Made by a program: the position numbers and the translations under genes | Notes under the pieces: model-generated | Databases searched by the model: none | What the model was told of the DNA's origin: nothing | Seen by the model: the letters and a program-made list of their open reading frames with translations, nothing else | Source of the DNA: Prorocentrum cordatum | Taxonomy: Eukaryota | Length of the DNA stretch: 64,000 bases | NCBI GenBank assembly: GCA_963575745.1 | Contig: CAUYUJ010000002.1 | Span: 1,054,001-1,118,000, forward strand | Direction: 5' to 3' | In this document: positions 32,251-58,185 of the stretch, piece by piece | Layout of the letters: each line of letters starts with the position of its first letter | How positions within the stretch are numbered: the first letter of the stretch is position 1

Positions 32251-32518
32251 TGAAGGGGGCCGGTAGGCCCGACCAGAAGCTACGCCTTAGGCGTAGCAGA
32301 GCTACAGCTTTGTTGTACCGTAGTAACGATAGTCCCAGTAGTAGGGGATCGTCGCGGGATCGACGAGCCATCTCAAGCAAATGATGCTGTGGCTTCGGAG
32401 GCAGATGGTCCACCTCGCACTGAAGTGTAATCAGATCTGGGCGGCCGGCCGCTTGAGCACAAACGGCCGCGCACACACGCTCGTTACCTCTCGCCTGTAT
32501 CCCAGCTCACTTCAGAGT
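32251..32518 (-). repeat. 3' LTR (portion shared with the 5' LTR; may extend to about 32665)
   Basis: About 270-bp direct repeat of 58190-58457, visibly diverged (roughly 80% by eye); ends ...CCCCTTCA on the minus strand. Confidence 0.85.
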
Positions 32519-32675: not shown

Positions 32676-33310
32676 TCAGGCGGCCTCAGACCAAAATGTC
32701 TGGCCAGCCCGATAAGGAGTATGACGCTTGAAGTCATGCTTGAAGTATTGCGTACCTCCCATGACCTGTAGGAACATATTGCTGTCGACGCCCCCCTTTG
32801 CGTGGCCATCCGCGGTCATGTCGCGAGCGTCACACCACTGAATACTATGCACGATTCCTCGCTCCATCATCTGTCGTATCCGACTGATGTGTCCTGAAAG
32901 GGCACACTCAGTCGGCTCTTTTTCAAGTCTTTGCTTGACAAGGACCTAAAAACAGACTCAGCATCTATGGCCAATGTGACCTTGACGCTCAGGCCACCCA
33001 ACTCAAGTACGTCTTTCAACTGAGTGGGAATCAGCGGCCCTGCAAGGAGCTCGTGCGGAGTCACGATCGTGGGATAGTAGTCCTCCAAGTTGCGGGCTGC
33101 TGCTAGTGTCTCTGCTGGACAGCTTGAGCGGACCTGCAAGCGGTGAGACTTGCAGTGCGCATCGATCAAGTGGACGACAGGCCTGCCGGATGGCGTGTTT
33201 CCACGCCGTAGCAGGTTTGCCCCGCGAAAACCATAGCCTTTCACATCGTCACCGGCATCTCCAGTCAGGCGTCGTTATAACCTGAGTCGCTGTGCAGGTC
33301 AACGTCGCCC
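32676..33310 (-). pseudogene. Copia RNase H (frameshifted)
   Basis: DLHSDSGY, AETLAA, LAIDAESVF, WCDARDMTADGHAKG. Confidence 0.8.
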
Positions 33311-34400
33311 GCTGGAATCATCGCTTGGTAGACGATATTATTAGGGCAGGCCTGCAATTTCCCGGTCATCGCGTTCAGTCGTCGCACTTGTATACTGGTC
33401 GAGTCTTGGACACGTTGTAGAGAGACCACATATACCATCACCCACACATGGGTGATTAATGCGTGAGCCAATGCTCCTCTGAGGCTGACGACCATGTCTG
33501 CGACCATCCTTGATGCCGTGGCGCAAGCGTCGGCGCCGGTGGGTTCATGATGCTGCATAGGACGGAGCTGTTTGATGTATTCATCTTGGTCCAATGTGAC
33601 ATTGCCGTCCTCATCCATGGTATACCTCGCAGCACACTTGGTATATGTATGCTTGTTGAGTCTACACTGACCAAACATGTCCTCTGCGCACTTGGCGCAC
33701 TTGTCAGGTGGTGCCCTCAGTGCCGGCCATATTGATATCATCAACATGTTTGGCTGTGCAAGTTACTGCTCGTCTCGATTCTCTCGTCGTAGGACGCGGG
33801 TCTGAGACCGAAGCCCCCCGGGGCCCTTCTGAGCTTTAGTGGGAAACATCTGGGTGCATCCTTGGTGCCGGTGCCTGGCTCAAGGCGCTGCAAGCGGCGC
33901 TTCGACTCGTCGTTGCGTCCGAATCCTGGGAGGGGCCGAAGCGCCGTGGCCAGTCCAGGCGGCAAAGTAAAGCGCGCGACGCGTTCTTCCTCACCAGTTG
34001 CCTCAGCAAGTTCCTGGTGGGTCAACCCTTTCAGGAAGGCCGTGTTGATGTCGAGGGGGGCAATGGCCCATTGCCTCTTGCACGCTGCCGCGCTTGCGAG
34101 TAACTTCTGGCTTGGCCGCCGCGCCGCCCCTGAGGGCGCTTCGAAAACTTCAAGGTCCATAAAACCTAAGCACCGGGCGCATATCTGATGGTACGTTCCA
34201 TGTCGCATTTCTCGTTCTTCACGAACTTCTATTTATGCACGTGCCTCGATGTCATGATGTTTGGTTTTATATAAAAATATATCGATATATTGCATCTTGA
34301 AACACTTGTCAAACCATGTCTTGAGTTCGGTGTATAGGGCCTTTGATACTTTCTCGGGGTTCGCCTGGACGTCGACCTGCGCGAAGAAGTCGCCTTCGTT
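33311..34400 (-). pseudogene. Copia reverse transcriptase (frameshifted)
   Basis: ELKTWFD, GFMDLE, LDINTAFLKG, GTKDAPR, and KHVDDI at about 33730-33752 (YVDD equivalent). Confidence 0.85.
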
Positions 34401-35399
34401 GACAACAGCAGCTCGCTTTGCAGCGGAGGTAACATATACTCCCAAGGTGGTTGCGCGGCTGGCATCGAATATCCTGCGCTGTTGTTCAGATACGATTACC
34501 TTTGACATTTCTGCCGTGGAGCGGAGTTCTACATATTGACAGTTTTCGTCTGAGTCCACTCCGTAACTGTGGTCTTCGACCGTCGAGCACAGTGGTACAT
34601 GATACGCCTCCTCGATGTCGGAGTCGCGCGGGTGCCCCACCTTCGGCAAGTGCCCCCGCTGTTCTTCAGATACTGTGGCCGACGCACTGTTGTCGGGAAT
34701 CACATGTGCGGGTACAGTGTAAAGGTCGCCCAGTGGAGTTGCCTCCCGCAGCTCCCTTTCATCGCGTAGTTCTGTATACCGCACTTCCATAATATGTTCC
34801 TCAAGGTCCGCTTCCGATTCTTCATATATCGTAGGAAGCCGTCCACCCTCCTGCGGTGGTTCGGCTTCTGGGGCTTCTCCGGCGGTTTCGTCGTGCGTCG
34901 GTCTTTCCGCCAGTTCCTCGAACTTTGTCATGTCTGGGTCAGAGCCCGCTTGAGGTTTAGTGGACTTTAGGCCCTGGATGATTCTCGAATGTTCTGAGCC
35001 AGTTATATCATGAATATTGAGGACAGTGCCTTCTGCTTTGTAGTAGTGGAATCCTGGATTCACATCGTTGTCATAATGGGCCAATGTGCCGCTGTCAGCG
35101 TAAGCCACCGGAGGTAGCTCGTGGATACCCGTGGCCAACCTAACATAGACTACGTTCTCACTGCAGAAGAAGTTTCTGATAAGGTATTGTAACGCCAGAT
35201 GTTCTTTAGGATATAGTTCGCTTGCGCTTGTCATCTGATGCGTCCCCCTTGTGGCCGGGACATAGTCAAGTGTCATCGCAGGTCTCCCCGCAGGTAGACT
35301 GGCTACGAATGTCAGTGCTGTCCGTAGTGCAGTGTTGTCGGAGCCGATTTCCCTGGTTATCAAAACTTCGATGTAAAGTGAATGTCGTGCGTCGCCATA

Positions 35400-36338
35400 T
35401 TGTACTTGGTCATCGCGGTTTCCCGCTCGAAGATGACTTGACCCCTGCCGGGATCATGTCTTACGACAGGGAACGGGCCACTCCTGCCTGTCCTTCGTAG
35501 TTGCGCGGCGATGATAGTCGACCAAATCTCCTTCGTCGTAGTAATGCTGACCGGTGATAGTTGTCTTAGTGCGCAATGCACGATGGGTCTTAGCCACTGC
35601 AGTGGCCCGTGTGATAGCTTCAATGCATACCTTACGGATCACCTGTTCTTGAGGATGATCCTACGTTTCCGTCGGCCGTTCGTGATCCAGAACAGGCAAG
35701 TCAGGAAGCATTGCTGGTTGCCGCCCAAACAAAGCGCTGCATGGAGACACCTCGTTATAAAGAATACATTCGTTGGCGGCAAGCAGGGCGTCATGCAGTA
35801 GTCGCGTGAACACAAGAGTCATGTCTAACCTTTTGAGTTCAGCTTCCATAGCGTGGAGTAGGTGGCGCAATATGCCATTTCTGGCATCGATCGTCACTGT
35901 TAAGGCCCCCCCCCATCGGAGTAGAGTGCCTTGGCAGGTCCGAATTTCATCCAGCACTGATGATAATACTGGTCCTTGTCTGACCCGGTATGGTATCTCC
36001 ATTCCAATAGCATAGCGAATACAACGATCGATGATGTGCAACTTATTTTGTTCTTGTTTGTAGAACGTGCGGTCGCATTCGGCTTCTTCGTTGAACTTGC
36101 CAGGTAGCGCAGTGGATGGCATGGCGGCATGCCCAGGCCTGTCCCAAGGCATGCGCTCCCGACATGAAACGCAGACACCTTTGATCAGGTTGAGCGTGAC
36201 GTTGTTCAGACCTGCCTTGGTTAAGCTGGGCCTCATCTTGGATTCTGCAGCACAAAACCAGCGCACGTGTAGCTTCCGCAGCTCGCGTGCTACCACGCTT
36301 GGGTCAAGGCTTCGTGCGTCTTGTAGCTTGATTTGCAC
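35400..36338 (-). pseudogene. Copia integrase (decayed)
   Basis: LRKLHVRW...CVSC zinc-finger remnant, FNEEAECD, HIIDRCIRY, FGPAKALYSDGGG, SPCSALFGRQP. Confidence 0.8.
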
Positions 36339-37049
36339 ATCGAATCTTGAGACTGGAAGTCTTGGGCGTGCAGCAGGGTTACCCGCAGGTGGCGGTGGAG
36401 GCGGATCTCCTCCCTGCTGTCGGCCGCGTCTGGCACTGATCTGCGGTAGTCAGGTGCGGTCATCCGAACCACCCGCTCCGCTCGAGGCAGGTTGCCCCGC
36501 GGCAGGTTCAGCAGCGTGTCTGCCTGCTGTAAAGTCGTGGCTGCTGGCGGCAGCTGTGGGACTGGCCCTAGAGCGGGGTCTTGGTGCTCGTAGCCGCATA
36601 AGTGGTAGTGCGTATTGCGTCTCGGGTGAATGAGCTGCCAGTTCGGCAGGCGCTTGATGTACCTGTCCGTGGTCGTCGGGCAAGTTTCAGGGTTTGGCAA
36701 ACTTGCATGTGCCAGGTGCCCGTAAATGGCAAGGCTTGTTCTGGCCGTAGTTCTTCGTGCAGCTCGGACATTCCCAATGGTGGCCCCCCTTATCATATCG
36801 CCTGCAATGTTGAGGGTTTCTGTCATGTGAAGGAGAGTGCATGTTAACATTATCTGCACATGCAAGACATCCTAACCCTCCCGAGGGTGGTCTCGTGATC
36901 GGCCCGTCGGGCTATAGAGGGATACTTGGGTCGTCAAAATCAAATCCCCTCGCGTTGGTGGTGACGAGTGCAGTGCGAGAGCAAGGGTGACCATGAAAGG
37001 GATCGCGGCTCACTTGGAATACATCGCGCGCGATCTGAACTGCATCGAC

Positions 37050-37665
37050 GAAAAGGGCCTGCATCCTTGAAGTATAATGTTCAGCCACGGACAGTTCTGA
37101 ATTACATACCGAGGCATGCTGATGATGGCCAACGCACCGCTTTCGTTCAAAAGGTGTAAGGAAGGAAAAGACGATGGTTGGCAATCGTCTCGGTCGGTTT
37201 CCGTATCAATGCCCCATGAGCATCACGTAAGCCAGACTCATATTCATTTTGCAAATGCCCTTGCATGTGGCCAATGGTGTCCATGGCGGTATCTGATCCA
37301 CCCAAGTACCCACTGGTTGTTCTCGCACGTCAAACCGTGGAAGGTCGGTCGTTTTGACGTAGGGCAATTGTTCCACAACGCTTTAAATGTGGAAAGTATT
37401 CGTTCTGCTGTTCATTCCATGTGTCCGAATTGTCTTGGGAGAGTTGAAATAGGAAGGTAGCCCAGTCGTTGTGCAGTTGGGTTATAGTATGACAGCCTTG
37501 ACGAAACACACGTATAAATAACGCATCGCTGCATCCTGGGCATCCTTGTTTCCAAGGTCAGCATATGATCGCTTGTCTACACTTCCTCCGGCGGGCTAAC
37601 CTTGGCTGAACTCTAACTGCGAGATTCCCCCACTTCCCCCATGCAGTTCCAACATGCCAACCTTG
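37050..37665 (-). pseudogene. Cytosine-5 methyltransferase-like domain within the Copia polyprotein
   Basis: MLELHGGSGGIS (SAM-binding motif I-like), VIL*PNC (motif IV-like), VREQPVGTW (motif VI-like) and RKPT occur in the correct order; stops are present. Confidence 0.6.
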
Positions 37666-39759
37666 TTGCGCCCATAAGAGAACGTTGGGATTCTGGAAAA
37701 GACCAAAAACATCTGCGCGTGCATCCACAGGTAGCCCCGCAAATTGCGCGACGAAGGTTTCTTCTTCAGCATCGCTCTCCGTGTCGGAGTCAATGGGGGC
37801 GTCGGTGTAGTAGGCGCTACATCCGAGACCCTTTAGGTCGTCACCGCAGTCGCCGTTGCCTTCCTCGACTACCTTGGGTGTCTTGCGTGGCCTGATGCCC
37901 GCTTCTTTGTCGGCTTTCTGCTTTTCGATTTCTTTGTTTCGGGCGTCCGTCCGCCGGTAGTGCTGTCTGTTGTTCAGTGTCGGATGAACCGAGCGTCGGG
38001 AATTCGGGGATCGAGGGGAGCACGAGGCCACGCTCAATCGAGGGGCGGGTGGGGGCGATCGTCATCCACGAACGTGACTCGCCTTGGGCGCGGTCGCTGG
38101 CCAGCTTGTAGGAGAACCGGTCCTGGCGGTTCCCAATACAATCGAGTACGAACGTGTGTCACACCATGTGGTAACGGTGCATTGAAATAATACCCGATAG
38201 GCTGATCCTGGATCTTGATGCCTTGTATAATAGTATGATCATCAACTTTCATCGTTACTCGTCTCACGACATGGTCCACTTCAGGGCCACTCTTGGGAGA
38301 CTGAACGTAAATTCAAGCTCCTTTATCCACTCGTGTGGGTGGTAAGATGTACAGCACTCGTGTGGTTTCCCTTTGTTGTTATGCAAACCAATTTGATTAA
38401 CCAGTCTCGCAGTCATGATACCCAGTGTTTTGTTACGACATTCTGCCTTCTGGTTGCCTTGGCCATGCCAGTCCAACTCATGCTCGGCAAGTTTTGCAGG
38501 TTTCCCTGCAATCTGGCACGTGCATCTCCACAGGCTAGTTGGGATGCGCGCGTAGGTAGTTGTCACCTGCAGATGCGATCCTCTTGGCAACTTACTTAAA
38601 CGGTCATATTGCATACCGAAGTGGCAGCATCGAATAGCGCGACCTGCATGTCTAGATCTTCAATCGCATCTCGCATGGGACCTCGTTTCCAGAAGTAGCC
38701 TGGTGGTCCCACAAGTACTATAGACATGCGTAGAGCCCGCGCCTTAGTTATTACATTTCGGATGCGTCGTGTGGCCCCGAGCGCTTTCCACGCATGCTAA
38801 CGCGCCAGTCAGCGGGCGTTGCCACCCATAGCAGTAGATAACCCTCCGAGAGTAAAGCGCCCAAATACTATGTACCAGTAGAGGTCATAACCTCTGTATG
38901 TGTGATACGGTCGCACATGTAAACGCGAGCTCGGAGTTCAGCGCAAGCTGTCCGCGCGTCCTCAATGACAAGTGCACGATAATGATAATGATGCGATGAG
39001 CGTTCATTTCTGCAGCGGCCACACAGCCGGGCCCGCTGCTGTCCTTGGCAGCCGCGCAGCCGGGCAGGCCAGTGCCCCTGGCGCGCACCGCCGGCGCCTG
39101 GGGAAATAATGCAGGCCCCCCCGCGCCAGACAACATAACCTCAGTATTCGGCCTGTCTAGGCAAGCGCGAGTGGCCGTGGCACGCGCCTGCCCCCGTCAC
39201 TCATTTTCAAGCAACGGGGGCGTCCAAATGCCCGTGCCACGCTGCGCTGCTGAGCCACTGCTCGAAGTGCAAAGATCGTGCTTCTCAGCGGCATTATTCC
39301 CTCCAGCAGGTGTCCCTGCCTTAGCGTCGGGCGGCGTCCACATGCTGCCCTCCTCGTAGATGGCCTGGTAGGCCTTCGCCTGCAAGTTCCACAGGGCGAA
39401 GTCCTGGTCGGCCAGTGTGGGGGCATTCCCGAAGGGCGCGCTCCTGCGATGCCAGGTCTTCAAGGTGTCATTCACCAATGACTGGATCGTGAAAGCAGAC
39501 GTCTCCGCGTTAATGGAGAAGCAGATGCCCTTGGTGTCCTGAGACATCATATGTGCATGGGCATCGCAAGTAGCGGGTGCCACCGCGCTGCTCGATGCAG
39601 GTTGCCCTGCGACTGGCTCTGCGCCAGCTGCCCCCCTGACAAGCAACAGGGCCTCTTCGCTGTGAGGATTGGCCGTGGTAGTAAACGACATCGACCCTCG
39701 ATCCTGCGTCGCGGCCCCGTGCTCGTCGACCTTGGGCGCTCAGACCCCCGAAGGCGTTT

Positions 39760-40344
39760 TCATGCAATCCAATGCTCTGGCGCCTTTTCCAGGAGGAGCT
39801 TGTACATCTCAGAGCCGGGGGTGGCCATCTTCTCCTGCCCCAGATCCAAGATCTGGATGGCCCCCACGTTGGACATGCTCCTCGTGCCCAGGATCGCAGC
39901 AATATGTCCCCCTGAAGCCTCATCCACGTTAGCTGAGTAGGTGTCCAGTCTCGGCACAGCAGGTGCCCCCGCTGGATCTCCTGTCTTCTTGCACGCAACT
40001 TTGCAGTGCAAGGCCTTGTCGCAGATAACGGCGCCATGCCCCACTCCCGACACGCAGGGCCTCTTCGTCAAATTCAGCTTCTTGGTATCGTGTCCGTGAA
40101 AGCGGGATACACGTTCGAATGTCTGTGCCGTTTTCAGACCGACGATGTGGATGTTGCTTGCAGTGTCAAGAAGAATCGCCAGCATCCCATCCGCCATGGT
40201 GGTCCCACTTTTCGCGGCCAGGGCCCATTCATGGCGTTCTACGAATATACCTGGCATCTCGGACAGTGTAGTTCCATGCTGACCCTTGCGACGCCTCTGC
40301 TCCAACACCCAATCGTTCCTCGTCAGGGGCGCGAAGACGATCAT
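39760..40344 (-). pseudogene. Retroviral-type aspartic protease region
   Basis: ILLDTASNIHIVG, then VSGVGHG and AAILG. Confidence 0.7.
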
Positions 40345-42435
40345 GTACCCGCGGGCCTCCTCCTCAGTGATGGGGTTCTAATCGAAGATCCAGGCCGTCG
40401 GGCACTCGTCGTGCATGTGTGGGTGGTGTGAAGATGAGAGCGGCATGTTCATCAACGTATCCTCATCGGCTCGCATGGCTACCTGTCCATCTGTGTTCAC
40501 CATCAACACAGTGCGTAGCATGTCACGCTCGGATATGGCACTATTGCCGCTGCGTGCGCTTGCCGGGCTTTCCGGTTTGCGCTGGCTACGCGGGCGGGTG
40601 TCTCGCCCGTGCGGAATATTTGCACGTGGTGCTTGGAACCACTGCGCACTTCTCTCGGTGGCCCGCACCATGCGTCTCAGCCACATATCATTGGCAGGCA
40701 ACGCTGCAGGCGTTGTCGTAGCAGGTGCCCTTGCGTTGCTGGCTGATTCAGCTACCAATGGCATAGGCGTATATGTAGCAGGCGCGGTCGCTGCTGTCGC
40801 CTGAACCGCATTGGATGATGAAGCAGGTTGCCCCGCAGGTGTCGTTGCGGCGGCAACTGCCGCGTTGTCCGTTATTATCGCCGTGATGCGGTTGAGCTCT
40901 TCGCGACGGTCCCTGAGCTCGTTAGCCCCATCTGAGTATCTCTTCATGACGAGTTGCTGCATTCTGATCTCCGGGGTGGACGTAGTAGGACTCAGCTACG
41001 ATGAGACCAGCGCCCCTGCAAATGGCGCAGGGGGCCTCAATTGCGGCACGTCCTAGGGCACCGGCCAGCTGTCTATCCACATGTGCGCGCGCCACTCGGC
41101 CCCAGCACTGCGCATGGAATCTGTAGCTACGCTGGGGCCTCCAGACCTTGATTGATGAAGTTGCCCAGGCATGCACATTGCACACTTGTTGAAGTCACCG
41201 TCGCGCATGACCGGTGGTGTCGCCGATGGCCTGATGCGCGTCTGGTGCTCCAGAGTGGATTCACCAACCTCGTACTGGATCGGTGGAAACGATGGCGGCT
41301 GCATGGCTGCGAGCGCCGCCAGATTGAAAACAGGCGCCCCCGCAGAAATAGGAGTAGCAGGTTGCCCCGCACGACCCGTCGGCCGGTTTGCCGTCCGCTC
41401 CTGGTTGCGGCGCTGGCGGGCCAACAGCATTGAGAGGCTGGCCTGCTGCGCCTCGTGGATGGCCAGGATCTCCTGGCGCAACTCCCCCATGGATGATGGC
41501 GCTACCAAGCCGGGGGCCAGTTGCATCGCATCGGGATCCATAGGAGTAGCCAGATAGCCGCAATGGGGAATCTGGCCCAGGATTCCTGGCGCGCACCCAG
41601 AGCCGCGCGCCAGCTGAGACTGATAGACGTCGTCGGCGGTCGCCCGAACATACGGGTTATCCGGCTGCGCTCCCACGCGAAGGTTACCCGTGACCTGAGA
41701 ATGGTAGTCAGGGAACAACGGGGCGTCCATCGGCGGCGCTGCGGGGCGCTCAGAAGCTGTCGGATCGCATGTCGGGTGGCTGAAAAACGCTGGGACATAT
41801 CCGTACCTGTTGGGTTTGTCCAGTGATGGATTTGGGTCTGGAACAAACCCCCAAGGAGGTGTCCAGCTGGCGCTAGGGAGGTCGATGCCATCCCTACGCG
41901 AACTCTGCGCGGCCTCGCGCATCTGCCGGAACATCCAGTGTTGCCGACCCACCAAACTTTCAGTCCGAGCAGGTTGCCCCGCATGTGGACGTGGCGAACG
42001 GCGATGTCGCCTGCAAGGCCTGGTAGGGCTGTGGGTCCATCCGAATGCTCTGGAGCCTCGCCTGCAGGCTGTTGGTGCTCCCAGCACTCGGTGGAGTCCC
42101 AAATGGAGTCGTAGCCCTGCTCGCAGGCGCAAGCGACGCAGGTTGCCCTGTAGGTGCTGGCAACTGTTGCGCCTGAGCACGCCGTCGTTGGGAGTATACC
42201 CGTTTGACGTCATGCCAGACACGCCCGCACTCTGGGCCTGAATCCATGACCCATCTGGTCCCCCTGCAGGTGTTCCCGCTTAGTGCCCCTCTTGCAACAG
42301 AAATGCCGCGGCGAACGACCACCGGCATGGGCGTCGGTTCGGGGCACTTCAAATTTTAGGTGGTTTTTGGAATAAGCCAACCCTTCAACGATGATGCATC
42401 ATTTCGAAATTCATATAGGTCGTCAAAGAGTAACA

Positions 42436-43241
42436 TCACGCAGATTTCTCCGCTCGTTTTCCCACATGTACAAGGGATTGAACCACATCTCCCACACGGT
42501 TGTATATACACTGGTCCGCGTTAGGCAGGATGCCTACAAGCTGGGCGATGTGGGTCGGCGGAAGTATGCCGTTCCTGCCTGCCCCCATCATAATATCACT
42601 TGCTGAGCGCCGAATAGCCTGACTATCGCGAAGTACGTTTTCCAGACTTATCATAATCAATACTTCGGAATTGACGCGCGGGCCGGACTGAATCCTGATA
42701 TCTCCCGGTAAATATGGACAGCCATGAACAAACTGTCTGCCCCATTTGTTGGCAATGCCATCGGCGCGGCATTGCAGTCCCGTGCGAAGTATATGCGGGA
42801 TTTTGGCCCATTGGGTACCATGAATAAAATAGCAAGGTGCACCTGGAGTTGTCAAGCCAGTTATCCTCATATATTGGGACCTAGGGCACTTTATCCCAGG
42901 GTTGCTATGTCCATTACTTGGGCGCAGAAAGTACGCATCGTGAGTCTCGGTAACGAACTCGCACTTCTTGACCTGGAGCCTGTGCTTCTGCATACCGGTG
43001 TTGCCAACCATGCCAAGCAAGCTCAGCACGGTCAAAGCTTGCTATGCCCAGTGGCGTTTGCTTAGGCAACGCCGGACGGTCTCCAGGTGCTTGCCACGGT
43101 ACCGCTCGCCACCCTCAGGTGGCCAGTCGTTGAGCAGCTCCGAGAGCTCCACCCGCCCATCGAACTCGCCCAAAAACGGTACTGCTGCCAGAAACCTATC
43201 AGAAATATGGTTATTACGTAGCACCCCGCAATTGCGGATAA
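42436..43241 (-). pseudogene. kptA: Tpt1/KptA RNA 2'-phosphotransferase domain inside the retrotransposon
   Basis: DGRVELSELL, KHRL, LRPSNGHS, IHGT, ILRTGL, GRQFVH, SGPRVNSEVLIMI and GILPP match the ordered Tpt1 motifs; one in-frame stop near 43042. Confidence 0.85.
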
Positions 43242-43319
43242 GAGTGAGGGGGCGGGCGCGGGCGACGCGGGCGTCGTCGAGCCGGCGGACCTCGTGGCCC
43301 CCACCTTCCCTGTCGATGG

Positions 43320-43820
<501 letters not shown>

Positions 43821-44214
43821 CCCAAGATAACTGCAACGCAATCCTTTTTTCCACTTTATGCTCCCCGCCTTCTCTGATCAAGGCAACTCGCCAGGGCAAA
43901 GTTGCTGGACGGGCTGGTGTGGATGCGCGGGGCTTGAAGAGGTCCTTGCGGGCTCAGACGGCATGCGAAAATCCGCCGCCGCGCTTGTGCGGCATTGGTT
44001 TGTTCTGAATTGGTTCTGAATTCAGTTTGTACCCTGAACGTGGTCGCGGTGGTTGCAAAAGATGGTTTGTACCCTGAACATGGTTTGGGTCGCGGGTTGG
44101 TCGCGAGTTGGTCACGGGGTGGGTCGCGGGCTCTCCACCTGGAAGGAATGCAAAAAAAAACCCGCCGCAGGCGCCGAAAATGGTGGTTTGTACCTTCAAC
44201 GTGGTTTGGGTCGA

Positions 44215-44563
44215 AGGTGGGTCGCGGGTGGGTCGCGGGGAGGGTCGCGGGGTGGGTCGCGGGTGGGTCGCGGGTGGGTCGCGGGTGGGTCGCGCGGGGT
44301 GGGTCGCGGGGTGGGTCGCGGGTGGGTCGCGGGGGGTCGGGGTGGGTCGCGGGTGGGTCGCGGGTGGGTCGCGGGTGGGTCGCGGGGGTCGCGGGGGGGG
44401 TCGCGGGTGGGTCGCGGGGTGGGTCGCGGGGCGGGTTGCGGGTGGGACGACGACAACAACAACAACAACAACAACACAACAACAACAACAACAGCAGCAA
44501 CAACAACACCAACACCAACACCAACACCAACAACAACAACAAACAACAACAACAACAACAACA

Positions 44564-44658
<95 letters not shown>

Positions 44659-44660
44659 CG
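44215..44660. repeat. (GGGTCGCGGGT)n minisatellite followed by (AAC)n
   Basis: Read directly from the sequence. Confidence 0.92.
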
Positions 44661-44914
44661 CAAGGACACTCTCTCAGGCCACCCCGGCGGGGCCCGTGGG
44701 TGTGTCCTCGCCCCCGGGGCGAGCGCACTGCCCCAGGCCACACGTTGCAGTTGTTGCCCTGGGGGGGGGGGGAGCAACGCGCAACACCTCTGTCATACGC
44801 TAACGTAGATCTATATATGTTTCCGAATCTCCGTTGGCTCCCTTACTGTTCCCCACGCACTCCTGTGTCCGAAAACCGACCACGCGCCAGCGAGGCCAGC
44901 TCCTCCTCCTCATA

Positions 44915-46295
44915 GGACTCCTATGGAATCGCGCGGGACCCTGTAAGGATCCTGTAGGATCCCTATAGGACTCCTATGGAATCCTGCCGGACCCTGTAAG
45001 GATCCTATAGGATCTCTCTAGGGTTCCTATGGAAACGTGCAGGACCGTGTAAGGATCCTATAGGATCCCTCCAGGGTTCCTATGGAATCGTGCAGGACCC
45101 TGTTAGGATCCTATAAGATCCCTATAAGGTTCCGATGGAATCGTGCAGGACCCTGTAAGGATTCTATACGATCCCTATAGGGTTCCTATGGAGTCGTGCA
45201 GGACCCTGTAAGGATCCTAGAGGACCCTCTACGGTTCCTATGGAATCGTGCAGGACCCTGTAAGGATCCTATATGATCCCTCTAGGGTTTCCATGGAATC
45301 GTGCAAGACCCTGTAAGGATCCTATGGGATCCCTCTAGGGTTCCGATGGAATCGTGCAGGACCCTGTAAGGATCCTATAGGTTCCTCCTCTATAGGACTC
45401 CGATGGAATCCCTCTAGGGTTCCAATGGAATCGTGCAGGACCCTGTAGGGTTCTATAGGATCCCTATAGGATTCCTATGGAGCCGTGCAGGACCCTGTAA
45501 GGATCCTATAGGATCCCTATAGGGTTCCTATGGAATCGTGCAGGCTCCTGTAAGGATCCTATAATATCCCTATAGGGTTCCGATTGAATCCTGCAGGGTC
45601 CTGTGGCGATCATATAGGACCCTTATGAAGGTTCCGATGGGATCGTGCAGGACCCTGTAAGGATCCGATAAGATCCCTATAAGGTTCCTATAGAATCGTG
45701 CAGGACCCTGTAAGGATCCTATAGGATCCCTCCAGGGTTCCTATGGAATCGTGCAGGACCCTGTAAGGATCCAATAGGATCCCTCTAGGGTTCTTATGGA
45801 ATCGTGCAGGGCCCTGTCAGGATCCTATAAGATCCCTCTAGGGTTCCTATGGAAACCTGTTGGCCTTGTAAGGATCCTATAGGATCCCTCTAGGGTTCCT
45901 GTGGAATCGCGCAAGACCCTGTAGGGATCCTATGGGATCCCTCTAGGGTTCCGATGGAATCGTGCAGGACCCTGTAAGGATCCTATGGGATCCCTCTGCG
46001 GTTCCGATGGAATCGTGCAGGACTCTGTAAGGATCCTATGGGATCCCTATAGGTTGTTCCTATGGAACCGTGCAGGACCCTGTGAGGATCCTATAGGTTC
46101 CTCCTTATAGGACCCCGATGGAATCGTGCAGAAGGATGCTATAGGTTCCTCCTTATAGGTCTCCGATGGAGTCGTGCAGGACCCTGTAAGGATCCTATAG
46201 GATCCCTATAGCATTCCGATGGAACCGTGCAGGGCCCTGTAAGGATCCTAAGAGGCTCCCTCTAAGTCTCCGATGGAATCGCGCAGGACCCTGCA
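44915..46295. repeat. Tandem satellite, about 53-bp unit, about 26 copies
   Basis: Consensus GGAATCGTGCAGGACCCTGTAAGGATCCTATAGGATCCCTMTAGGGTTCCTAT; units start near 44921, 44974 and 45027. Confidence 0.93.
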
Positions 46296-47989
46296 GAGGG
46301 GTGCGCCAAAATGATCCTCGAGAGGGGTGTGCCATAATGAAGCCTCTGAGGAGCTCTCTGTGGAGCCAGGGCCACGATCCTCGAGAGGGGTGTGCCGAAA
46401 TAAAGCATCGGTGGAGCTCCCTGTGGGGCCAGGGCCACGATCCGTGAGAGGGGCGCGCCGAAATCAAACTTCGGTGGGGCTCCCTGTGGGGTCAGGGCCA
46501 CGATCCTCGAGAGGGGTGTGCCGGAATGGAGCCTCGGTGGAGCCTCCTGCGGGGCCAGGGCCACGATCCGTGAGAGGGGTGCGCCGAAACCAAGCTTCGG
46601 TGGAGCTCACTGAGCCACGATCCTCGAGAGGGGTGTGCCCAAATCAAACCTCGGTGGAGCTCCCTGTGGGGCCAGGGCCACGATCCGTGAAAGGGGTGCG
46701 CCCTTTGGGGCCTGTATGGGGCACCGCAGCAGTCCCGAAGGACCTGCCGAGCAACGCCGCCGGGCCCTGCAGACCCCCGCGGCGGCCTGGCGAGGCCTCG
46801 TGGCGTTGCTCGGACCAGGGGCCCTGCAGGGCCCGCGCGTGGCCCCGTGGCGTTGCTCGGGGGGGGGGGGGGGGGGGCGAGCAATGGGCCTCCAGTAGTG
46901 TCCTCGCGAACAACAGCAACACACAAACAAACAAACAAACAAACAAACAAACAAACAAACAAACAAACAAACAAACAAACAACAACAACGATAATCTGCA
47001 CCGCGGAATTCCACTTCAGCCACGCACCCAGGGACAGTGAATAACCGCTCGGCCCCCTCACTCTGATGAAAGGGTTTGTGACGAGTAGCTGTAGTGAGCC
47101 ACTCTGAACATCGGCGCTGCTCATCGAAGTTCGGGCTTGGTCCAACAATTCTCAATTCCCTGAGGATCTCCCGCAGGTAGTTCTTTTCGGGCTGGAAGCT
47201 GAGAGCAACGTATCCACGTAGGAGATTGCGTGCAACCTGACGTGTGCGAGCGGCCTTATCCGCAATGGCGGCAGTATCCTTGATGTTGCACTTCACCACG
47301 ATAAATCGATCAGACCCGTCGTCGATGTGAGGAGGATACGCCGGGTTGATCTTCGCGCGGTGGGCGGTGCACATACATTCCCAAGACTGCCTGCAATCCA
47401 CAGGCATTTCGAGAGTGGGAGCAGGTTGCCCCGCGGAGCTCGGATCTGGCTCATCAGACCTTCTTGCTGACTGGGCTGCTGCAGGCGCTGCTGATGCGCG
47501 AGCGCCTGGAGATGATGAATCAGCGCCTGCAGATCCCCTGAGAGTTCGAGGGGCGCGAATGTGGAAGTCCAGGCGCTTATTTCCACTGCTGTCGTAGAAC
47601 TCGCATGCGTTGTCCTTGGGGGCTGCCCCTGGCGCCTTCGACGCAGTTGCCAATGCCTTCTGCTTGGGGCAATGCTTTGGCGACGAAGCATCACGCGATG
47701 ATCCCTCCAGCGTTGGCGCCCAGCCTGTCCTGTGCGCCCGGCCAGGTGCAGGGCCGCGACGAGCCACGGGCCCCCTTGGAGTAGGGGCGCTGGCGCCCTG
47801 AAATGCAGCTGCCGCGGCGGCCGCTGCTGGACCTCTGGATCGACGTCGGTCCGCAGGCTGCCCCGCAGATCGCTGCTGGTTGCTGCTGCCAGGATTGGGG
47901 TCCTGGGCTGTCTCTCTTCTTCTGGTTAGGCGGCGGCGCAAGCTGATCAGGTCCGAGCGACTTAGGCTGGCCCGAAGAATCCGAAGATG

Positions 47990-48043: not shown

Positions 48044-49569
48044 TTGTTCTGTCTTTGGTGCACGAAGAAGTGCCTGTGGCTCTGCCCCTGCGGGTATGCA
48101 TGGCCTATAAGATACAAGCCCTCTGTCAGGATTAAGCTCCCCACTATCTGGTCTTCCGAGCGCCATATTCCTGATGGTAGCCTTGCCCCTTAACAGTCAG
48201 GTCATACGTGTCAGCGCCAATCCGTCTTACAATCGCGGTTTTAATCCAGCCTGCAGTTCCAGCATGATGGGCGACAACTCTTTCTGGGGATTAATCCATG
48301 TCTTCCGTGCCTGCGTCAGCAGGGTCAATGATGGCGTCCGCCACGCGGGCGACGTCCGCGAGCGCGGAGAGGGCGTCGGGGCATCCCGAAGCACATCCTG
48401 GAGGGGATTCCGCTGTGGGGCCCGCTGCTTCGGCCAAGTCTTCAGCTTCATCACCTTCTGGCTGGTCGTCTTCTTCTTGCTGAGACGAAACAAGTTTCCC
48501 CGCGCGCCGCTCGCGATTGAATGCCTCTCTCCCATGTAGCCTTGGCACGGGCTATTTCATGATCTGCAGCTGCCTTGTAACTCAGGTGCGTCAGCTGCTC
48601 TCTGGGTGGAGTTTTGTTCGGATCGGTGAAACGCACCCGACCGTCGCCGTCGGACCAGACCCATTGTGTCTTTCGGAAGTTGGGGCTCCTTGAGGAGCGC
48701 CCCGCGGGGCGGCCGGGTCTGCGGTCGGCGCGCGCGAAGCAAGTGCAAACAACATGTCGGTGAAGCTCCCCTTCTTCGATGGCGGCCCTCTTCGTGTCCC
48801 GCTTTACAAGGGCGTCTTGTGATCTGACGTCCCCTGTCCTCTTTAAATGACTTTGCCTTCGTCATTTCGCCCGACATTGCGAAGGGAGTGCCAGTGGCGG
48901 ATATGGCTTTCAATCCAACCTTGGTCGTGGTACCATTGCGTCGCATCCGGGGGTCTGCGCTGGCGAGCCAATCCGGCAGTCCGGTAGCTGACAGGGCGCT
49001 CTAGCTCGCCGCCTGGATATTCTTCTGGAGGACATTGCCTCTGAAGAGGGTGCCCCCGCAAGCGCCGCTTCCTCGGTGGAGCGCCAGGCGCACTGCCCCT
49101 CCTTGGCGGAGTCTTCGGGGCCCTCGTATCAGGAAGGCGAGGGCGCTGGAGGCCGCTGGGGCGAACGCCGCTGGAGCGCGCGCGCGAGTGTCCGCGCGGA
49201 TAACTGCGGGACCGACCGCTACGTAGCACGCGCGGGTCAACTTCCCACTTTTCGTCATCGTCGCCCGAGCGGTCCGCGCGTCTCAAGGCCCGACGGCTCG
49301 CCGGTCGCTCCTGGCGGCTCGGGAGACGCCCCGCGGCTGTAAATGTATATTGAATTCCGTCGTCGTGGCCGAACTCGCGCTGGATGCGCTCCGAGCATCT
49401 CGCGGGTATCCCCGCAGAGGGTCCTCATCGTGCACTTCCATGTTCATCGGATTTCCACTTGCCTGAGGAACAGGCATCAATTGTATTTCCTCGTCTGTCG
49501 CAGGAATTGCGGCTTCTTAAACCGCGGGCGCCCCCGCCATTCTTTGATCTGCTTCGGCGGGCATGTAGA

Positions 49570-52500
49570 AATTGTTGACGCTTCGCGTATCCCCACCAGC
49601 CCATCCAGAAACGATGCTCAGGGGAGTTGAGGTGATCAGGGAAGTCGGGGAGCATGCAGAATAACAAAGGGCGGGGGAAGCTGTCACAGACCCCGAGAGG
49701 GGGAGGATGGAAGAGGAGTCGTCGTCGTCGTCGTCGTCGTCGGAGGAGGAGGAGGAGGGGGAGAGGAGGAGGAGGAGGAGGAGGAGGAGGAGGACGGAGG
49801 AGGAGGAGAATCGGAGGAGGAGGAGGAGGAGGGGAAGGAGCTTCTTGGGGGTCTTTTGAGGGCCTCTTGGAGGGCTTTTTGGGCGCCTTGGGGCATCTTG
49901 GGCGCCTCTTGGGACCCTCTTGAGGCGCTCTGGGGAGCCTTCGGGGCGCTTTTGGGGCCATCTTGGAGGGAGTCGATCAAACAAGAGGGGGGGTTTAATT
50001 AGCGCCCCCCCTCGGAAGCCCCTAAAATCGCCTCTTGGACCCCTCTTGGAACGCTCTTGGAGTGCTCTTGGGCGCTCTTGGGGCCGTCTTGGGGCTCTTT
50101 TGGGGCTCTCTTGGGGCCCTCTTGGGCCATCTTGGAGCCATCTCCAGGCCTCGGATGGCCATCGGAAGCGAAAAGGCGAGAAAGCAAAAATCATTGATTT
50201 TCCTTAGGTTTTGGGACGATTTTGGCCTCTTCGGGGCCTCCTTGGGGAGCTGTTTGGCCACTTGGAGTTATCTTGGGGCCGTCTTTGGGCTTCTTGGAAC
50301 CATCTTAGGAGCCATCGTGAGCGATCTTGCGCTATCTTGAGCCATCTTGGAGCTCATCTTGGGTTCTCTGAGGCGCTCTTGGAGCCGTCTTGGGCCATCT
50401 TGGGACGCTCTAACTACCCGCGGCCCCCCCCGTCCAGGTCCAGGGGAGGGGGTAGGGGGAGGGGTAAACCCCTCCCCAAGGGGGAAGAGGGAGGGGTGGA
50501 AGAGGATCTGCTCTAGACCACCTAGAGCAGATCCTCTTCCAAGCAGATCCTCTTCCACCCCTCCCTCTTCCCCCTTGGGGAGGGGTTTACCCCTCCCCCT
50601 ACCCCCTCCCCTGGACCTGGACGGGGGGGGCCGCTGGTAGTTAGAGCGTCCCAGATGGCCCAAGACGGCTCCAAGAGCGCCTCAGAGAACCCAAGATGAG
50701 CTCCAAGATGGCTCAAGATAGCGCAAGATCGCTCGAGATGGCTCCTAAGATGGTTCCAAGAAGCCCAAAGACGGCCCCAAGATAACTCCAAGTGGCCAAA
50801 CAGCTCCCCAAGGAGGCCCCGAAGAGGCCAAAATCGTCCCAAAACCTAAGGACCAGCCCTCGGCTAAGGTAGTGGTCTAGAACAGATCCTCTTCCACCCC
50901 TCCCTCTTCCCCCTTGGGGAGGGGTTTACCCCTCCCCCTACCCCCTCCCCTGGACCTGGACGGGGGGGGCCGCGGGTAGTTAGAGCGTCCGGAAGCGAAA
51001 AGGCGAGAAAGCAAAAATCATTGATTTTCCTCAGGTTTTGGGACGATTTTGGCCTCTTCGGGGCTTCCGAGGGGGGGCGCTAATTGAACCCCCCCTCTTG
51101 TTTGATCGATCTCTTCCAAGATGGCCCCAAGAAGCGCCCAGGAAGCCCCAAGAGGTCCCAAGATGGCCCCAAAATGGCCCCAAGAGGCCCCCAAGAGGCC
51201 CCCCGGAGGCCCCCAAGAGACCCCCAAGAGGCCCCAAGAGCCCCCCCAGATGCACCCAAGATGCTCCAAGAGGCCTCGGCGAGAATGCCTAATCATTGAT
51301 TCTACACAGGTTTTAGCCACATGGAGGCCTCTTGGGGGGGGGCACGGATTAAGATGACTCCAAGAGCGTCTGGGAGAGCCCAAAATGACCTCCAAGATGG
51401 CTCAAGATATCCCAAGATGTCTCATAATGGCTTCCTCTGTGTGCTGCCCACTTCTCTGATCGAGGCAATTCCTCTGGGCATCGTTTCTGGATGGGCTGGT
51501 GGGGATTCGCGAAGCGACAACAATCAATGATTTTTGCTTTCTCGCCTTTTCGCTTCCGATGGCCATCCGAGGCCTGGAGATGGTTCCAAGATGGCCCAAG
51601 AGGGCCCCAAGAGAGCCCCAAAAGAGCCCCAAGACGGCCCCAAGAGCGCCCAAGAGCACTCCAAGAGCGTTCCAAGAGGGGTCCAAGAGGCGATTTTAGG
51701 GGCTTCCGAGGGGGGACGCTAATTAAACCCCCCCTCTTGTTTGATCGATCTCCTCCAAGATGGCCCCAAGAAGCGCCCAGGAAGCCCCAAGAGGTCCCAA
51801 GATGGCCCCAAAATGGCCCCAAGAGGCCCCCAAGAGGCCCCCCGGAGGCCCCCAAGAGACCCCCAAGAGGCCCCAAGAGCCCCCCCAGATGCACCCAAGA
51901 TGCTCCAAGAGGCCTCGGCGAGAATGCCTAATCATTGATTCTACACAGGTTTTAGCCACATGGAGGCCTCTTGGGGGGGGGCACGGATTAAGATGACTCC
52001 AAGAGCGTCTGGGAGAGCCCAAAATGACCTCCAAGATGGCTCAAGATATCCCAAGATGTCTCATAATGGCTTCCTCTGTGTGCTGCCCACTTCTCTGATC
52101 GAGGCAATTCCTCTGGGCATCGTTTCTGGATGGGCTGGTGGGGATTCGCGAAGCGACAACAATCAATGATTTTTGCTTTCTCGCCTTTTCGCTTCCGATG
52201 GCCATCCGAGGCCTGGAGATGGTTCCAAGATGGCCCAAGAGGGCCCCAAGAGAGCCCCAAAAGAGCCCCAAGACGGCCCCAAGAGCGCCCAAGAGCACTC
52301 CAAGAGCGTTCCAAGAGGGGTCCAAGAGGCGATTTTAGGGGCTTCCGAGGGGGGGCGCTAATTAAACCCCCCCTCTTGTTTGATCGATCTCCTCCAAGAT
52401 GGCCCCAAGAAGCGCCCAGGAAGCCCCAAGAGGTCCCAAGATGGCCCCAAAATGGCCCCAAGAGGCCCCCAAGAGGCCCCCCGGAGGCCCCCAAGAGACC

Positions 52501-53788
52501 CCCAAGAGGCCCCAAGAGCCCCCCCAGATGCACCCAAGATGCTCCAAGAGGCCTCGGCGAGAATGCCTAATCATTGATTCTACACAGGTTTTAGCCACAT
52601 GGAGGCCTCTTGGGGGGGGGCACGGATTAAGATGACTCCAAGAGCGTCTGGGAGAGCCCAAAATGACCTCCAAGATGGCTCAAGATATCCCAAGATGTCT
52701 CATAATGGCTTCCTCTGTGTGCTGCCCACTTCTCTGATCGAGGCAATTCCTCTGGCCATCGTTTCTGGATGGGCTGGTGGGGATTCGCGAAGCGACAACA
52801 ATTGTTGTCGCTTCGCGAATCCCCACCAGCCCATCCAGAAACGATGCCCAGAGGAATTGCCTCGATCAGAGAAGTGGGCAGCACACAGAGGAAGCCATTA
52901 TGAGACATCTTGGGATATCTTGAGCCATCTTGGAGGTCATTTTGGGCTCTCCCAGACGCTCTTGGAGTCATCTTAATCCGTGCCCCCCCCCAAGAGGCCT
53001 CCATGTGGCTAAAACCTGTGTAGAATCAATGATTAGGCATTCTCGCCGAGGCCTCTTGGAGCATCTTGGGTGCATCTGGGGGGGCTCTTGGGGCCTCTTG
53101 GGGGTCTCTTGGGGGCCTCCGGGGGGCCTCTTGGGGGCCTCTTGGGGCCATTTTGGGGCCATCTTGGGACCTCTTGGGGCTTCCTGGGCGCTTCTTGGGG
53201 CCATCTTGGAGGAGATCGATCAAACAAGAGGGGGGGTTTAATTAGCGCCCCCCCTCGGAAGCCCCTAAAATCGCCTCTTGGACCCCTCTTGGAACGCTCT
53301 TGGAGTGCTCTTGGGCGCTCTTGGGGCCGTCTTGGGGCTCTTTTGGGGCTCTCTTGGGGCCCTCTTGGGCCATCTTGGAACCATCTCCAGGCCTCGGATG
53401 GCCATCGGAAGCGAAAAGGCGAGAAAGCAAAAATCATTGATTTTCCTTAGGTTTTGGGACGATTTTGGCCTCTTCGGGGCCTCCTTGGGGAGCTGTTTGG
53501 CCACTTGGAGTTATCTTGGGGCCGTCTTTGGGCTTCTTGGAACCATCTTAGGAGCCATCTCGAGCGATCTTGCGCTATCTTGAGCCATCTTGGAGCTCAT
53601 CTTGGGTTCTCTGAGGCGCTCTTGGAGCCGTCTTGGGCCATCTGGGACGCTCTAACTACCCGCGGCCCCCCCCGTCCAGGTCCAGGGGAGGGGGTAGGGG
53701 GAGGGGTAAACCCCTCCCCAAGGGGGAAGAGGGAGGGGTGGAAGAGGATCTGCTCTAGACCACCTACGCCCAGAGGGCTGGTGGGATT
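49570..53788. mobile_element. Cluster of CCAAGA-rich Helitron2-like non-autonomous elements (tandem and inverted copies)
   Basis: End A is AATTGTTGACGCTTCGCGTATCCCCACCAGCCC and end B is CCACCTACGCCCAGAGGGCTGGTGGGATT. Contains 639-bp tandem units and a palindrome centred at 52801/52802. Confidence 0.65.
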
Positions 53789-53888
53789 CAACATCGGCAG
53801 GTTGCCCCGCGATGGGCATGCCCAGCAAGTCTGCCAGGTTGATCTCACTGCGGCCAGCGAACATCTTCTTCGAACAGCTCGTCGGCGT

Positions 53889-54869
53889 AATCCCACCAGC
53901 CCTCTGGGCGTAGGTGGTCTAGAGCAGATCCTCTTCCACCCCTCCCTCTTCCCCCTTGGGGAGGGGTTTACCCCTCCCCCTACCCCCTCCCCTGGACCTG
54001 GACGGGGGGGGCCGCGGGTAGTTAGAGCGTCCAAGATGGCCCACGACGGCTCCAAGAGCGCCTCAGAGAACCCAAGCTGAGCTCCAAGATGGCTTAAGAT
54101 AGCGCAAGATCGCTCACGATGGCTCCTAAGATGGTTCCAAGAAGCCCAAAGACGGCCCCAAGATAACTCCAAGTGGCCAAACAGCTCCCCAAGGAGGCCC
54201 CGAAGAGGCCAAAATCGTCCCAAAACCTAAGGAAAATCAATGATTTTTGCTTTCTCGCCTTTTCGCTTCCGATGGCCATCCGAGGCCTGGAGATGGCTCC
54301 AAGATGGCCCAAGAGGGCCCCAAGAGAGCCCCAAAAGAGCCCCAAGACGGCCCCAAGAGCGCCCAAGAGCACTCCAAGAGCGTTCCAAGAGGGGTCCAAG
54401 AGGCGATTTTAGGGGCTTCCGAGGGGGGACGCTAATTAAACCCCCCCTCTTGTTTGATCGACTCCCTCCAAGATGGCCCCAAAAGCGCCCCGAAGGCTCC
54501 CCAGAGCGCCTCAAGAGGGTCCCAAGAGGCGCCCAAGATGCCCCAAGGCGCCCAAAAAGCCCTCCAAGAGGCCCTCAAAAGACCCCCAAGAAGCTCCTTC
54601 CCCTCCTCCTCCTCCTCCTCCGATTCTTCCTCCTTCTCCGTCCTCCTCCTCCTCCTCCTCCTCCTCCTCTTCCCCCTCCTCCTCCTCCTCCTCCGACGAC
54701 GACGACGACGACGACGACGACTCCTCTTCCATCCTCCCCCTCTCGGGGTCTGTGACAGCTTCCCCCGCCCTTTGTTATTCTGCATGCTCCCCGACTTCCC
54801 TGATCACCTCAACTCCCCTGAGCATCGTTTCTGGATGGGCTGGTGGGGATACGCGAAGCGTCAACAATT
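53889..54869. mobile_element. Full about 980-bp copy of the same element, inverted
   Basis: Near-identical reverse complement of 49570-50520 with both ends intact. Confidence 0.75.
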
Positions 54870-58173: not shown

Positions 58174-58185
58174 GCGCCACTACCA
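58174..58185 (-). promoter_or_regulatory. Primer-binding site
   Basis: TGGTAGTGGCGC begins 4 nt after the LTR end (TTCA-AACT-TGG). A TGGTAG start is typical of initiator-Met tRNA PBSs such as that of Ty1. Confidence 0.7.

Follow-up and report, generated by a model that had tools for sequence, protein, structure and literature searches.

A predicted Tpt1 domain built into the polyprotein of a giant Copia-type retrotransposon family

The window considered here is a stretch of 64,000 nucleotides from Prorocentrum cordatum (GenBank assembly GCA_963575745.1, contig CAUYUJ010000002.1, positions 1,054,001 to 1,118,000 of the forward strand), and all coordinates below refer to it. Its minus strand carries an old, decayed copy of a Copia-type long terminal repeat (LTR) retrotransposon, about 26 kb long with its insertions, in which the parts follow one another in the order LTR, putative primer-binding site (PBS), gag, zinc knuckle, spacer, Tpt1, RING finger, protease-like region, integrase, reverse transcriptase (RT), RNase H and LTR. 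Here we describe the Tpt1/KptA domain of this element, a member of the NAD+-dependent RNA 2'-phosphotransferase family, together with its setting, relatives and possible function. We consider it likely that the copy belongs to a giant Copia-type family whose Tpt1 domain is integral, in frame and active, and acts on the element's own nucleic acids. Taken separately, the status of the domain as an integral and selected part of the element is very probable from sequence comparison, and its catalytic activity is favored with appreciably less assurance.

Relatives were drawn from public collections, and comprise sequences with P numbers and three loci (L001, L002 and L003) found by a metagenome profile scan built on six Tpt1 sequences. 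In the window, the Tpt1 domain lies in two parts separated by repeat DNA:

42436–43221, minus strand: Tpt1/KptA domain, C-terminal two thirds (KHR, RPSNGHS, HGT, GRQFVHG, SGPR), placed by Pfam, the PDB structures of TRPT1 and motif coordinates
43222–47041, no strand: 3.8-kb block of tandem arrays (periods 3, 11, 53, 63 and 4) splitting the domain in the window copy, from repeat analysis
47042–47404, minus strand: N-terminal extension and first lobe of the Tpt1 domain, with the Arg-His motif SEWLTTATRHKPFH at 47066–47107, matched to L001 residues 1290–1410 (E 2.4e-14) and to the relatives P0024, P0152 and P0153

The open reading frame (ORF) at 42436–43041 on the minus strand (201 residues) matches Pfam PTS_2-RNA (PF01885) with an E value of 6.3e-10 and 39.8 bits, against a curated gathering score of 26 bits, and aligns to positions 60–174 of the 177-position profile; the Tpt1 identity that the original prediction had read from motifs alone is thus upheld. 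The frame continues upstream across a single in-frame TAG (43042–43044) to about 43221, and reading through this stop (shown as X; P0001) raises the PTS_2-RNA score to 40.8 bits and gives matches to 7yw3 (E 1.3e-9) and 7yw2 (E 2.3e-7), the human and mouse TRPT1 structures in the PDB. The motifs listed earlier are all present in the translation of 42436–43302 of the minus strand, namely DGRVELSELL (43132–43161), KHR, RPSNGHS, HGT, GL..GRQFVH, SGPRVNSEVLIMI and GILPP. The domain contains no intron, as had been claimed.

The coordinates first assigned to the domain cover only its C-terminal two thirds and miss the N-terminal lobe, which sits apart at 47042–47404. By tblastn, L001 residues 1290–1410 map to 47404–47042 and residues 1401–2135 to 43221–41170, and the 3.8-kb tandem block between the two matches is missing from L001, L002, P0152 and P0153, where the Tpt1 domain is contiguous. 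Two candidates had been left open for the catalytic Arg-His dipeptide. In P0024, P0152, P0153 and L002, LSEWLSTALRHKPFH stands uninterrupted ahead of DGWV, and the sequence reads LSEWLSTALRHKPF(H/Y), about 20 residues, then DGWV. Since these four relatives carry the motif directly before DGWV, SEWLTTATRHKPFH at 47066–47107 is taken as the Arg-His motif of the window copy; the second candidate (47078–47105) was therefore correct, and the first, 'LRN' at about 43215, is ruled out by the position of the motif in the same relatives.

L001 (8780 bp) holds a single open frame of 2653 codons (820–8778, open at the contig end). In order, it takes in the PBS region, a gag-like region, a CCHC knuckle, a spacer of about 600 residues and a complete Tpt1 domain, and then a linker rich in P, Q and A, a RING finger and a region with a protease-like motif. 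The CX2CX4HX4C knuckle CDICGSTQHFRREC is intact at residues 637–650. PTS_2-RNA scores 61.8 bits in L001 (residues 1387–1620) and 62.9 bits in P0153, covering profile positions 5–177 of 177 in both. The RING finger (L001 residues 2130–2183, nucleotides 7207–7368; P0153 residues 894–947) passes the cut-offs of zf-RING_11 (33.8 bits in L001, 34.7 in P0153) and zf-RING_2 (29.5 and 31.2 bits). The protease-like region, with ILMDIGSNVNIVG in L001, is named solely from D-[IT]-[GA]-S motifs, and no Pfam family matched gag or protease in L001 or P0153. P0153 (1627 residues, from ENA) joins Tpt1, RING and protease in one protein and agrees with L001 (from JGI) over 1627 residues.

The domain order is the same in P0153, L002, L003, P0004, P0023 and P0032; L002 is open across all of its 495 codons, and in P0023, P0004 and P0032 the Tpt1 domain passes straight into the linker encoded by the next ORF of the window (AG.PAGG.DGSWIQA). 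The earlier claim that the family captured Tpt1 into its own polyprotein agrees with the unbroken gag-to-protease frame of L001 and with the order of its relatives, and, on the available data, Tpt1 is a constant component of the predicted polyprotein. When the window ORF was searched against 1.84 billion representatives, 199 proteins were returned at E ≤ 1e-3, and 66 of the compared rows, mostly short fragments, share 40% identity or more with the L001 domain (including L002, two L003 pieces and the window piece). Ten of the 16 element-type fragments with looked-up clusters are labelled Pyramimonas sp. CCMP1952, a green alga. A near-length search with P0153 returned only P0153 itself among 8000 scored candidates, and scans of viral contigs and genome contigs with the Tpt1 alignment found no relative.

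Two further features of the relatives are recorded here. In P0056 (133 residues), the tail of the protease region (GAILILEQGREK...SGHLALKADSSF) runs without a gap into the central part of the Tpt1 N-lobe (HLETVRHKLKDQRWACQ...); judged by its sequence, either this copy was rearranged or one lineage has another order of domains. The RING finger between Tpt1 and the protease-like region is a possible E3 ligase domain, unusual for a Copia polyprotein.

The other parts of the element between the LTRs, down to the protease-like region, are as follows, together with the LTRs themselves:

58188–58457, minus strand: 5' LTR, about 270 bp, with ends resembling TGAAG...CTTCA, a direct repeat with 32249–32518
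58171–58185, minus strand: PBS-like TGGTAGTGGCGCTGG, 2–3 nucleotides past the 5' LTR, kept in L001 as TGGTAGCGGAGCTGG
56732–58170, minus strand: gag-like region, without a Pfam family, matching L001 residues 72–562 by tblastn (45% identity, E 4.5e-102)
55028–55334, minus strand: decayed zinc-knuckle region of gag (EFDTCHSTQHVRREC at 55040–55066), mapping to L001 residues 551–654
49514–55027, no strand: about 5.2 kb of repeat-rich DNA that is extra relative to L001 (inverted and 639-bp tandem repeats); L001 residues 654–764 span 5.5 kb here
48529–49513, minus strand: conserved spacer of the polyprotein, without a known family, L001 residues 764–1056
41185–42435, minus strand: P/Q/A-rich linker from Tpt1 to RING, within the match to L001 residues 1401–2135, starting with AGTPAGGPDGSWIQAQS as in P0023, P0004 and P0032
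40979–41184, minus strand: RING finger, frameshifted (CAMCMPG.. then ..FHAQCW..APCAICRG), L001 residues 2144–2195
39790–40926, minus strand: aspartic-protease-like region (LLDTASNIHIVG at 40138–40173), L001 residues 2212–2637, named from its motif
32249–32518, minus strand: 3' LTR, a direct repeat with 58188–58457

The LTRs are in direct orientation and 86.7% identical over 270 bp, and the PBS-like TGGTAGTGGCGCTGG would pair with a tRNA 3' end (...CUACCA). Neither a target-site duplication around the LTR pair nor a polypurine tract before the 3' LTR was recognized. Between 58195 and 39790, eight segments of the window are colinear with the L001 frame, with 32–51% identity per segment by tblastn, and the three gaps in this colinearity correspond to extra repeat DNA in the window (about 1.4, 5.2 and 3.8 kb). 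This colinearity and the LTR alignment bear out the placement of Tpt1 within the LTR pair, after the gag zinc knuckle and before the protease-like region. No intact zinc knuckle was found on the element strand of the window. The knuckle-like CAMCMPG (41164–41184), downstream of Tpt1, belongs to the decayed RING finger, and the remnant of the gag knuckle lies upstream, at 55040–55066. The spacer between zinc knuckle and Tpt1 gave no Pfam match and no Atlas match.

In a tree of 71 rows, the nine element rows form one clade with SH-aLRT support of 90 (97 with the divergent fragment P0099), on long branches from the 61 cellular-type rows and about 30% identical to cellular TRPT1. Of nine cellular-type clusters examined, a single one is named, as Symbiodinium TRPT1. 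Comparing L001 with L002 (NG86) across the 239 domain codons gives a nonsynonymous rate (dN) of 0.107 and a synonymous rate (dS) of 0.931, thus a dN/dS of 0.12 that derives from one pair and a dS near saturation; the ratio is 0.55 in the 97-codon N-terminal extension and 0.78 in the 131-codon upstream linker. Two of the checks proposed with the original prediction, a tree and the rate ratio, set the element sequences apart from the cellular rows and point to constraint on the domain.

The essential tetrad of Tpt1 enzymes is Arg-His-Arg-Arg (available part of PMC6182162), which in the Aeropyrum enzyme ApeTpt1 is Arg14-His15-Arg63-Arg116 (available part of PMC10622864). Assigned by ApeTpt1 residue spacing and TRPT1 alignment rather than by structure superposition, the tetrad maps to LRH, K-x-R and GRQ in the element. 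An initial placement of the last two Arg residues at IRA and SGLR was replaced by K-x-R and GRQ on the basis of the residues given in the same part of PMC10622864. Among the element rows, the first Arg and the His are kept in 4 of 4, the Arg of K-x-R in 25 of 26 and the Arg of GRQ in 33 of 36, and the window copy keeps all four (TRH, KHR, GRQ). A conserved Lys and the equivalent of Arg134 are also kept in nearly all element rows. Together, the tree, the rate ratio and these residues show, at the level of sequence, an apparent capture of Tpt1 that happened once and long ago, and retention of the domain in frame under purifying selection with its tetrad intact. The AlphaFold2 prediction for the L001 domain (pLDDT 78.9, pTM 0.75) has the two-lobe fold of Tpt1, with an RNA lobe and an NAD+ lobe; all 21 Foldseek matches of this model at E ≤ 0.001 are Tpt1/KptA structures, the best being mouse TRPT1 (7yw2, E 2.9e-13, TM 0.78 normalized to the target).

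The rest of the coding region follows the protease-like region on the same strand:

32697–38921, minus strand: pol, with N-terminal domains without a family, integrase, RT (33759–34637; LDINTAFLKG at 34026–34055) and the RNase H end (32697–33262), colinear with P0163, P0170, P0185 and P0154

Assignment to the Ty1/copia type, as originally proposed, rests on the LTRs and PBS-like site, the probable position of integrase before RT, and the RT of relatives colinear with the window pol, in which Pfam RVT_2 (Ty1/copia RT, cut-off 31.6 bits) scores 47.6 bits in P0154, 44.3 in P0200, 38.0 in P0183 and 32.2 in P0163. Several other pol relatives score below this cut-off, and the RT piece of the window itself reaches only 13.7 bits, its pol pieces being too decayed for Pfam. 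Integrase is represented by rve at 24.5 bits, below the cut-off of 32.6, in residues 500–586 of P0185, upstream of the stretch that maps to the window RT, and HHCC- and DDE-like motifs can be read by eye in the consensus of alignment A6.

The Tpt1-bearing frame is tied to the P0154-type RT family by the layout of the L001 sequence, which starts with a pol end 97% identical to P0154 and continues with an LTR and then the gag frame. The start Met of P0200 (2223 residues) and P0206 (2200 residues) maps just past the protease region, at about 39140 in the window; such long pol proteins (up to 2223 residues) have no overlap with the L001 frame and are neutral on whether Tpt1 stands upstream of them. 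The coding capacity is probably divided into two predicted frames, one from gag to protease (at least 2653 residues) and one for pol (about 2200 residues), with the break after the protease and not after gag. At about 5000 codons together, these would seem to make a very large Copia-type element.

At the start of the pol frame (about 37100–38921, minus strand; P0170 residues 1–560; alignment A6) there are two conserved regions without a known family. The first carries the motif GPPGF.WK; its AlphaFold2 model is too poor to use (pLDDT 49). In the second, motifs read by eye (LELCGG.GRIS, LQPNC, FLREQP) recall motifs I, IV and VI of C5 DNA methyltransferases. Comparison of the pol N-terminal region with the Atlas gave a weak lead to DNA_methylase (0.84), and profile searches of Pfam and the PDB with these regions returned nothing.

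A short nucleotide motif is shared by the two frames:

36487–57112, minus strand: 14-mer GCRGGGCARCCTGC, nine copies starting at 36487, 39597, 40823, 41357, 41969, 47421, 47853, 53797 and 57099, from a motif scan

All nine matches are on the minus (sense) strand, against 0.01 expected, and the scan agrees with the earlier observation that the element's own 14-mer flanks the Tpt1 domain. L001 has ten copies, all on the plus (sense) strand, and the window and L001 lineages share the position of at least four sites. The 14-mer always encodes AGQPA in frame, in linkers between domains; AGQPA occurs in only 1 of 34 pol proteins. Within the L001 copies GGG is used in 9 of 10, CAA in 10 of 10 and CCT in 10 of 10, compared with 17%, 46% and 31% elsewhere in L001, and this fixed codon choice argues that the constraint acts on nucleotides. 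The 14-mer is predicted to fold into a 5-bp stem with a GCAA loop of the GNRA type (-7.1 and -7.8 kcal/mol), and its R position keeps pairing (G-U or A-U). From these features it might serve as a signal for packaging or recognition, encode a protease-site peptide, or do both.

In the function that we propose, Tpt1 would be an active NAD+-dependent enzyme, made with the polyprotein or cut out of it, that works on the nucleic acids of the element inside the particle, a compartment that host enzymes may be unable to enter. It would move ADP-ribose from NAD+ onto a phosphate of the element RNA, primer or cDNA. The preferred target would be the 5'-phosphate end of cDNA, RNase H products or primer tRNA, producing an ADP-ribose cap that would protect these ends and keep 3'-OH ends available to integrase. 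Almost as likely is the canonical reaction, removal of an internal 2'-phosphate from RNA. By analogy with known enzymes each of these activities, taken by itself, is possible at best.

In one step, Tpt1 enzymes can attach ADP-ribose as a cap to RNA or DNA that has a 5'-phosphate (available parts of PMC6182162 and PMC12678800). Capping is slightly favored because the particle would be rich in 5'-phosphate ends (primer tRNA, RNase H products, and cDNA 5' ends after primer removal), and because 3'-OH ends are all that integrase requires and no source of an internal 2'-phosphate in the particle is obvious. Removal of 2'-phosphates stays a live candidate because plant tRNA ligase leaves such phosphates (available parts of PMC10622864 and PMC12678800) and the closest fragments are labelled as green alga. 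In the literature searched, nothing usable turned up on 2'-phosphates blocking reverse transcriptase. More tentatively, Copia-like elements of about 16 kb in marine algae may use an active Tpt1 in replication, either to cap the 5'-phosphate ends of cDNA, RNA fragments or primer with ADP-ribose, or to erase 2'-phosphates that a plant-type RNA ligase leaves on an RNA needed by the element, and the 14-mer hairpins could mark their RNA for packaging or recognition within the same system. If true, this would be the first nucleic-acid ADP-ribosyl-transfer step in the life cycle of any retroelement, and a natural clue to the work of Tpt1 outside tRNA splicing.

Several results weigh against an active Tpt1 domain integral to a Copia-type family. 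The window copy is dead, with its Tpt1 domain split, one stop, frameshifts elsewhere and LTRs 13% diverged, and L003 is dead as well (one stop and one frameshift). Gag, protease and integrase passed no Pfam threshold in the window or L001. Tpt1 and RT do not occur together on any one intact contig; their link is made by the decayed window and by L001, in which the pol end before the LTR may come from a neighboring copy or an assembly path through the LTR. The estimate of selection has the limits of a single pair given above. Among sequencing runs, no RNA run is listed with the window stretch, and three DNA runs are (shares 0.13, 0.09 and 0.05). As to capping, human Tpt1 is inactive on DNA (available part of PMC6182162), so this reaction is not general to eukaryotic Tpt1. 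As to 2'-phosphate removal, no ribozyme or RNA family that makes 2'-phosphates was found at gathering score in the window or L001–L003, the sole match in the L001 scan being Ocean-VII at chance level (E 0.094). Finally, 13 of 36 element rows have another residue in place of the HGT His, compared with 5 of 82 cellular-type rows; these changes probably reflect dead copies among the fragments, and inactive lineages are possible.

Such His variation would also fit a domain kept for binding and not for catalysis, for example an RNA- or NAD-binding module holding primer tRNA or genomic RNA. The dN/dS ratio demonstrates constraint and not catalysis, and the long branch of the element clade, its low identity to cellular TRPT1 and its extra loops relative to TRPT1 point the same way. 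Some catalytic residues should have been lost from a module used only for binding, whereas the tetrad, the conserved Lys and the Arg134 equivalent are retained in nearly all rows and both lobes are modelled as in Tpt1, and we regard this explanation as improbable. Foreign DNA did enter the window copy, which is riddled with later insertions, so that a one-off retrocopy or fragment of host TPT1 could in principle have landed there. L001, L002, L003, P0152 and P0153, however, have the domain at an identical position and in frame; it is continuous with flanking element sequence in P0004, P0023, P0024 and P0032, and belongs with the other element sequences to one clade far from cellular types. The original prediction would have been overturned by the lack of a PTS_2-RNA match, or by related Copia copies that lack the domain, with insertion boundaries of its own in the window. 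The match exists, the related copies carry the domain, and the flanks are colinear with L001, so that it has no such boundaries. The single frame of L001, the window–L001 colinearity and the single element clade thus refute the retrocopy, to which we attach almost no probability.

Nearly as remote is an artificial origin of the gag-Tpt1-RING-protease frame, as an assembly chimera or a host Tpt1-RING gene beside pieces of a retroelement. L001 and P0153 are metagenome assemblies of a repeated element, and an assembler walking through the LTR could produce the L001 order of pol end, LTR and gag. Against this, the window was assembled independently, from a lineage only 32–51% identical to L001 segment by segment, and keeps the same eight-segment order on one strand between two LTRs, the ENA and JGI sequences of P0153 and L001 agree over 1627 residues, and the 14-mer is common to gag, the flanks of Tpt1, the flanks of RING, and pol.

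A classical Copia polyprotein has roughly 1300–1500 residues; unlike it, the present element has a first frame of at least 2653 and a second of about 2200. It resembles Ty1/copia elements (Pseudoviridae-type; for example SmTCL of Symbiodinium, PMC5776459) in its LTRs, PBS-like site, gag CCHC knuckle (intact in L001), integrase before RT (from a sub-threshold rve match), RVT_2-type RT and C-terminal RNase H. It differs from them in having Tpt1 and RING between gag and protease, and further conserved regions without assignment; in the available part of PMC5776459, the features listed for SmTCL are only RT, integrase, RNase H and LTRs. The domain itself is like cellular Tpt1/TRPT1/KptA (PDB 7yw2, 7yw3, 8tg3 and 6e3a) in profile, predicted fold and tetrad. 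Unlike these, it is embedded in a retrotransposon polyprotein, has a conserved N-terminal extension of about 100 residues and longer loops, and is about 30% identical to the nearest cellular types, including the Symbiodinium TRPT1 cluster.

A parallel is offered by the dinoflagellate and charophyte retrotransposons with a DNA methyltransferase (available part of PMC5890265), which likewise captured a host nucleic-acid enzyme and kept it across many copies. There, the enzyme and the class of element are different, the present enzyme being of the NAD+-dependent phosphotransferase family, and the same part of that source gives the Copia superfamily of Symbiodinium without any DNA methyltransferase domain. 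Gammabaculoviruses provide another mobile or viral genome with a Tpt1 homolog (KptA/TPT) of unknown purpose (available part of PMC3230848); unlike the present domain, theirs is a stand-alone gene of a large insect DNA virus, not part of a reverse-transcribing polyprotein. The literature searched holds no description of Tpt1 in a retrotransposon, and an earlier one is possible in subscription journals and Repbase-type reports, which were mostly outside the search. What seems to be new, and is supported by the sequence comparisons, is a giant Copia-type family with apparently captured Tpt1 and RING domains.

Tpt1 occurs throughout life. In most lineages without the fungal or plant type of tRNA ligase, its substrate is an open question (available parts of PMC6182162 and PMC6573784). 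A selfish element keeps only what aids its copying, and purifying selection on its Tpt1 therefore implies a useful step on a nucleic-acid phosphate: somewhere in reverse transcription, particle biology or host evasion there may be a phosphate to be removed or ADP-ribosylated. The element provides a defined and testable setting for finding it, with one polyprotein, one RNA, one primer and one cDNA. It also adds Tpt1, beside methyltransferases, to the enzymatic domains captured by LTR retrotransposons, and indicates that a Copia-type element can carry several accessory domains and grow to about 5000 codons.

The window is rich in repeats both within and around the element. A repeat complex at 49570–54869 makes up most of the approximately 5.2 kb of extra DNA between zinc knuckle and spacer. 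It comprises inverted copies of about 955 bp (49570–50524 and 54869–53911, 98.6% identical), three 639-bp tandem units (51057–52634, 99%) and arrays of an 11-bp CTCTTGGGGCC-like unit. A separate family of tandem repeats of about 91 bp occurs at 4309–4921, 31645–32193 and 60608–61108, about 70–74% alike between sites, and one of these sites adjoins the outer side of the 3' LTR.

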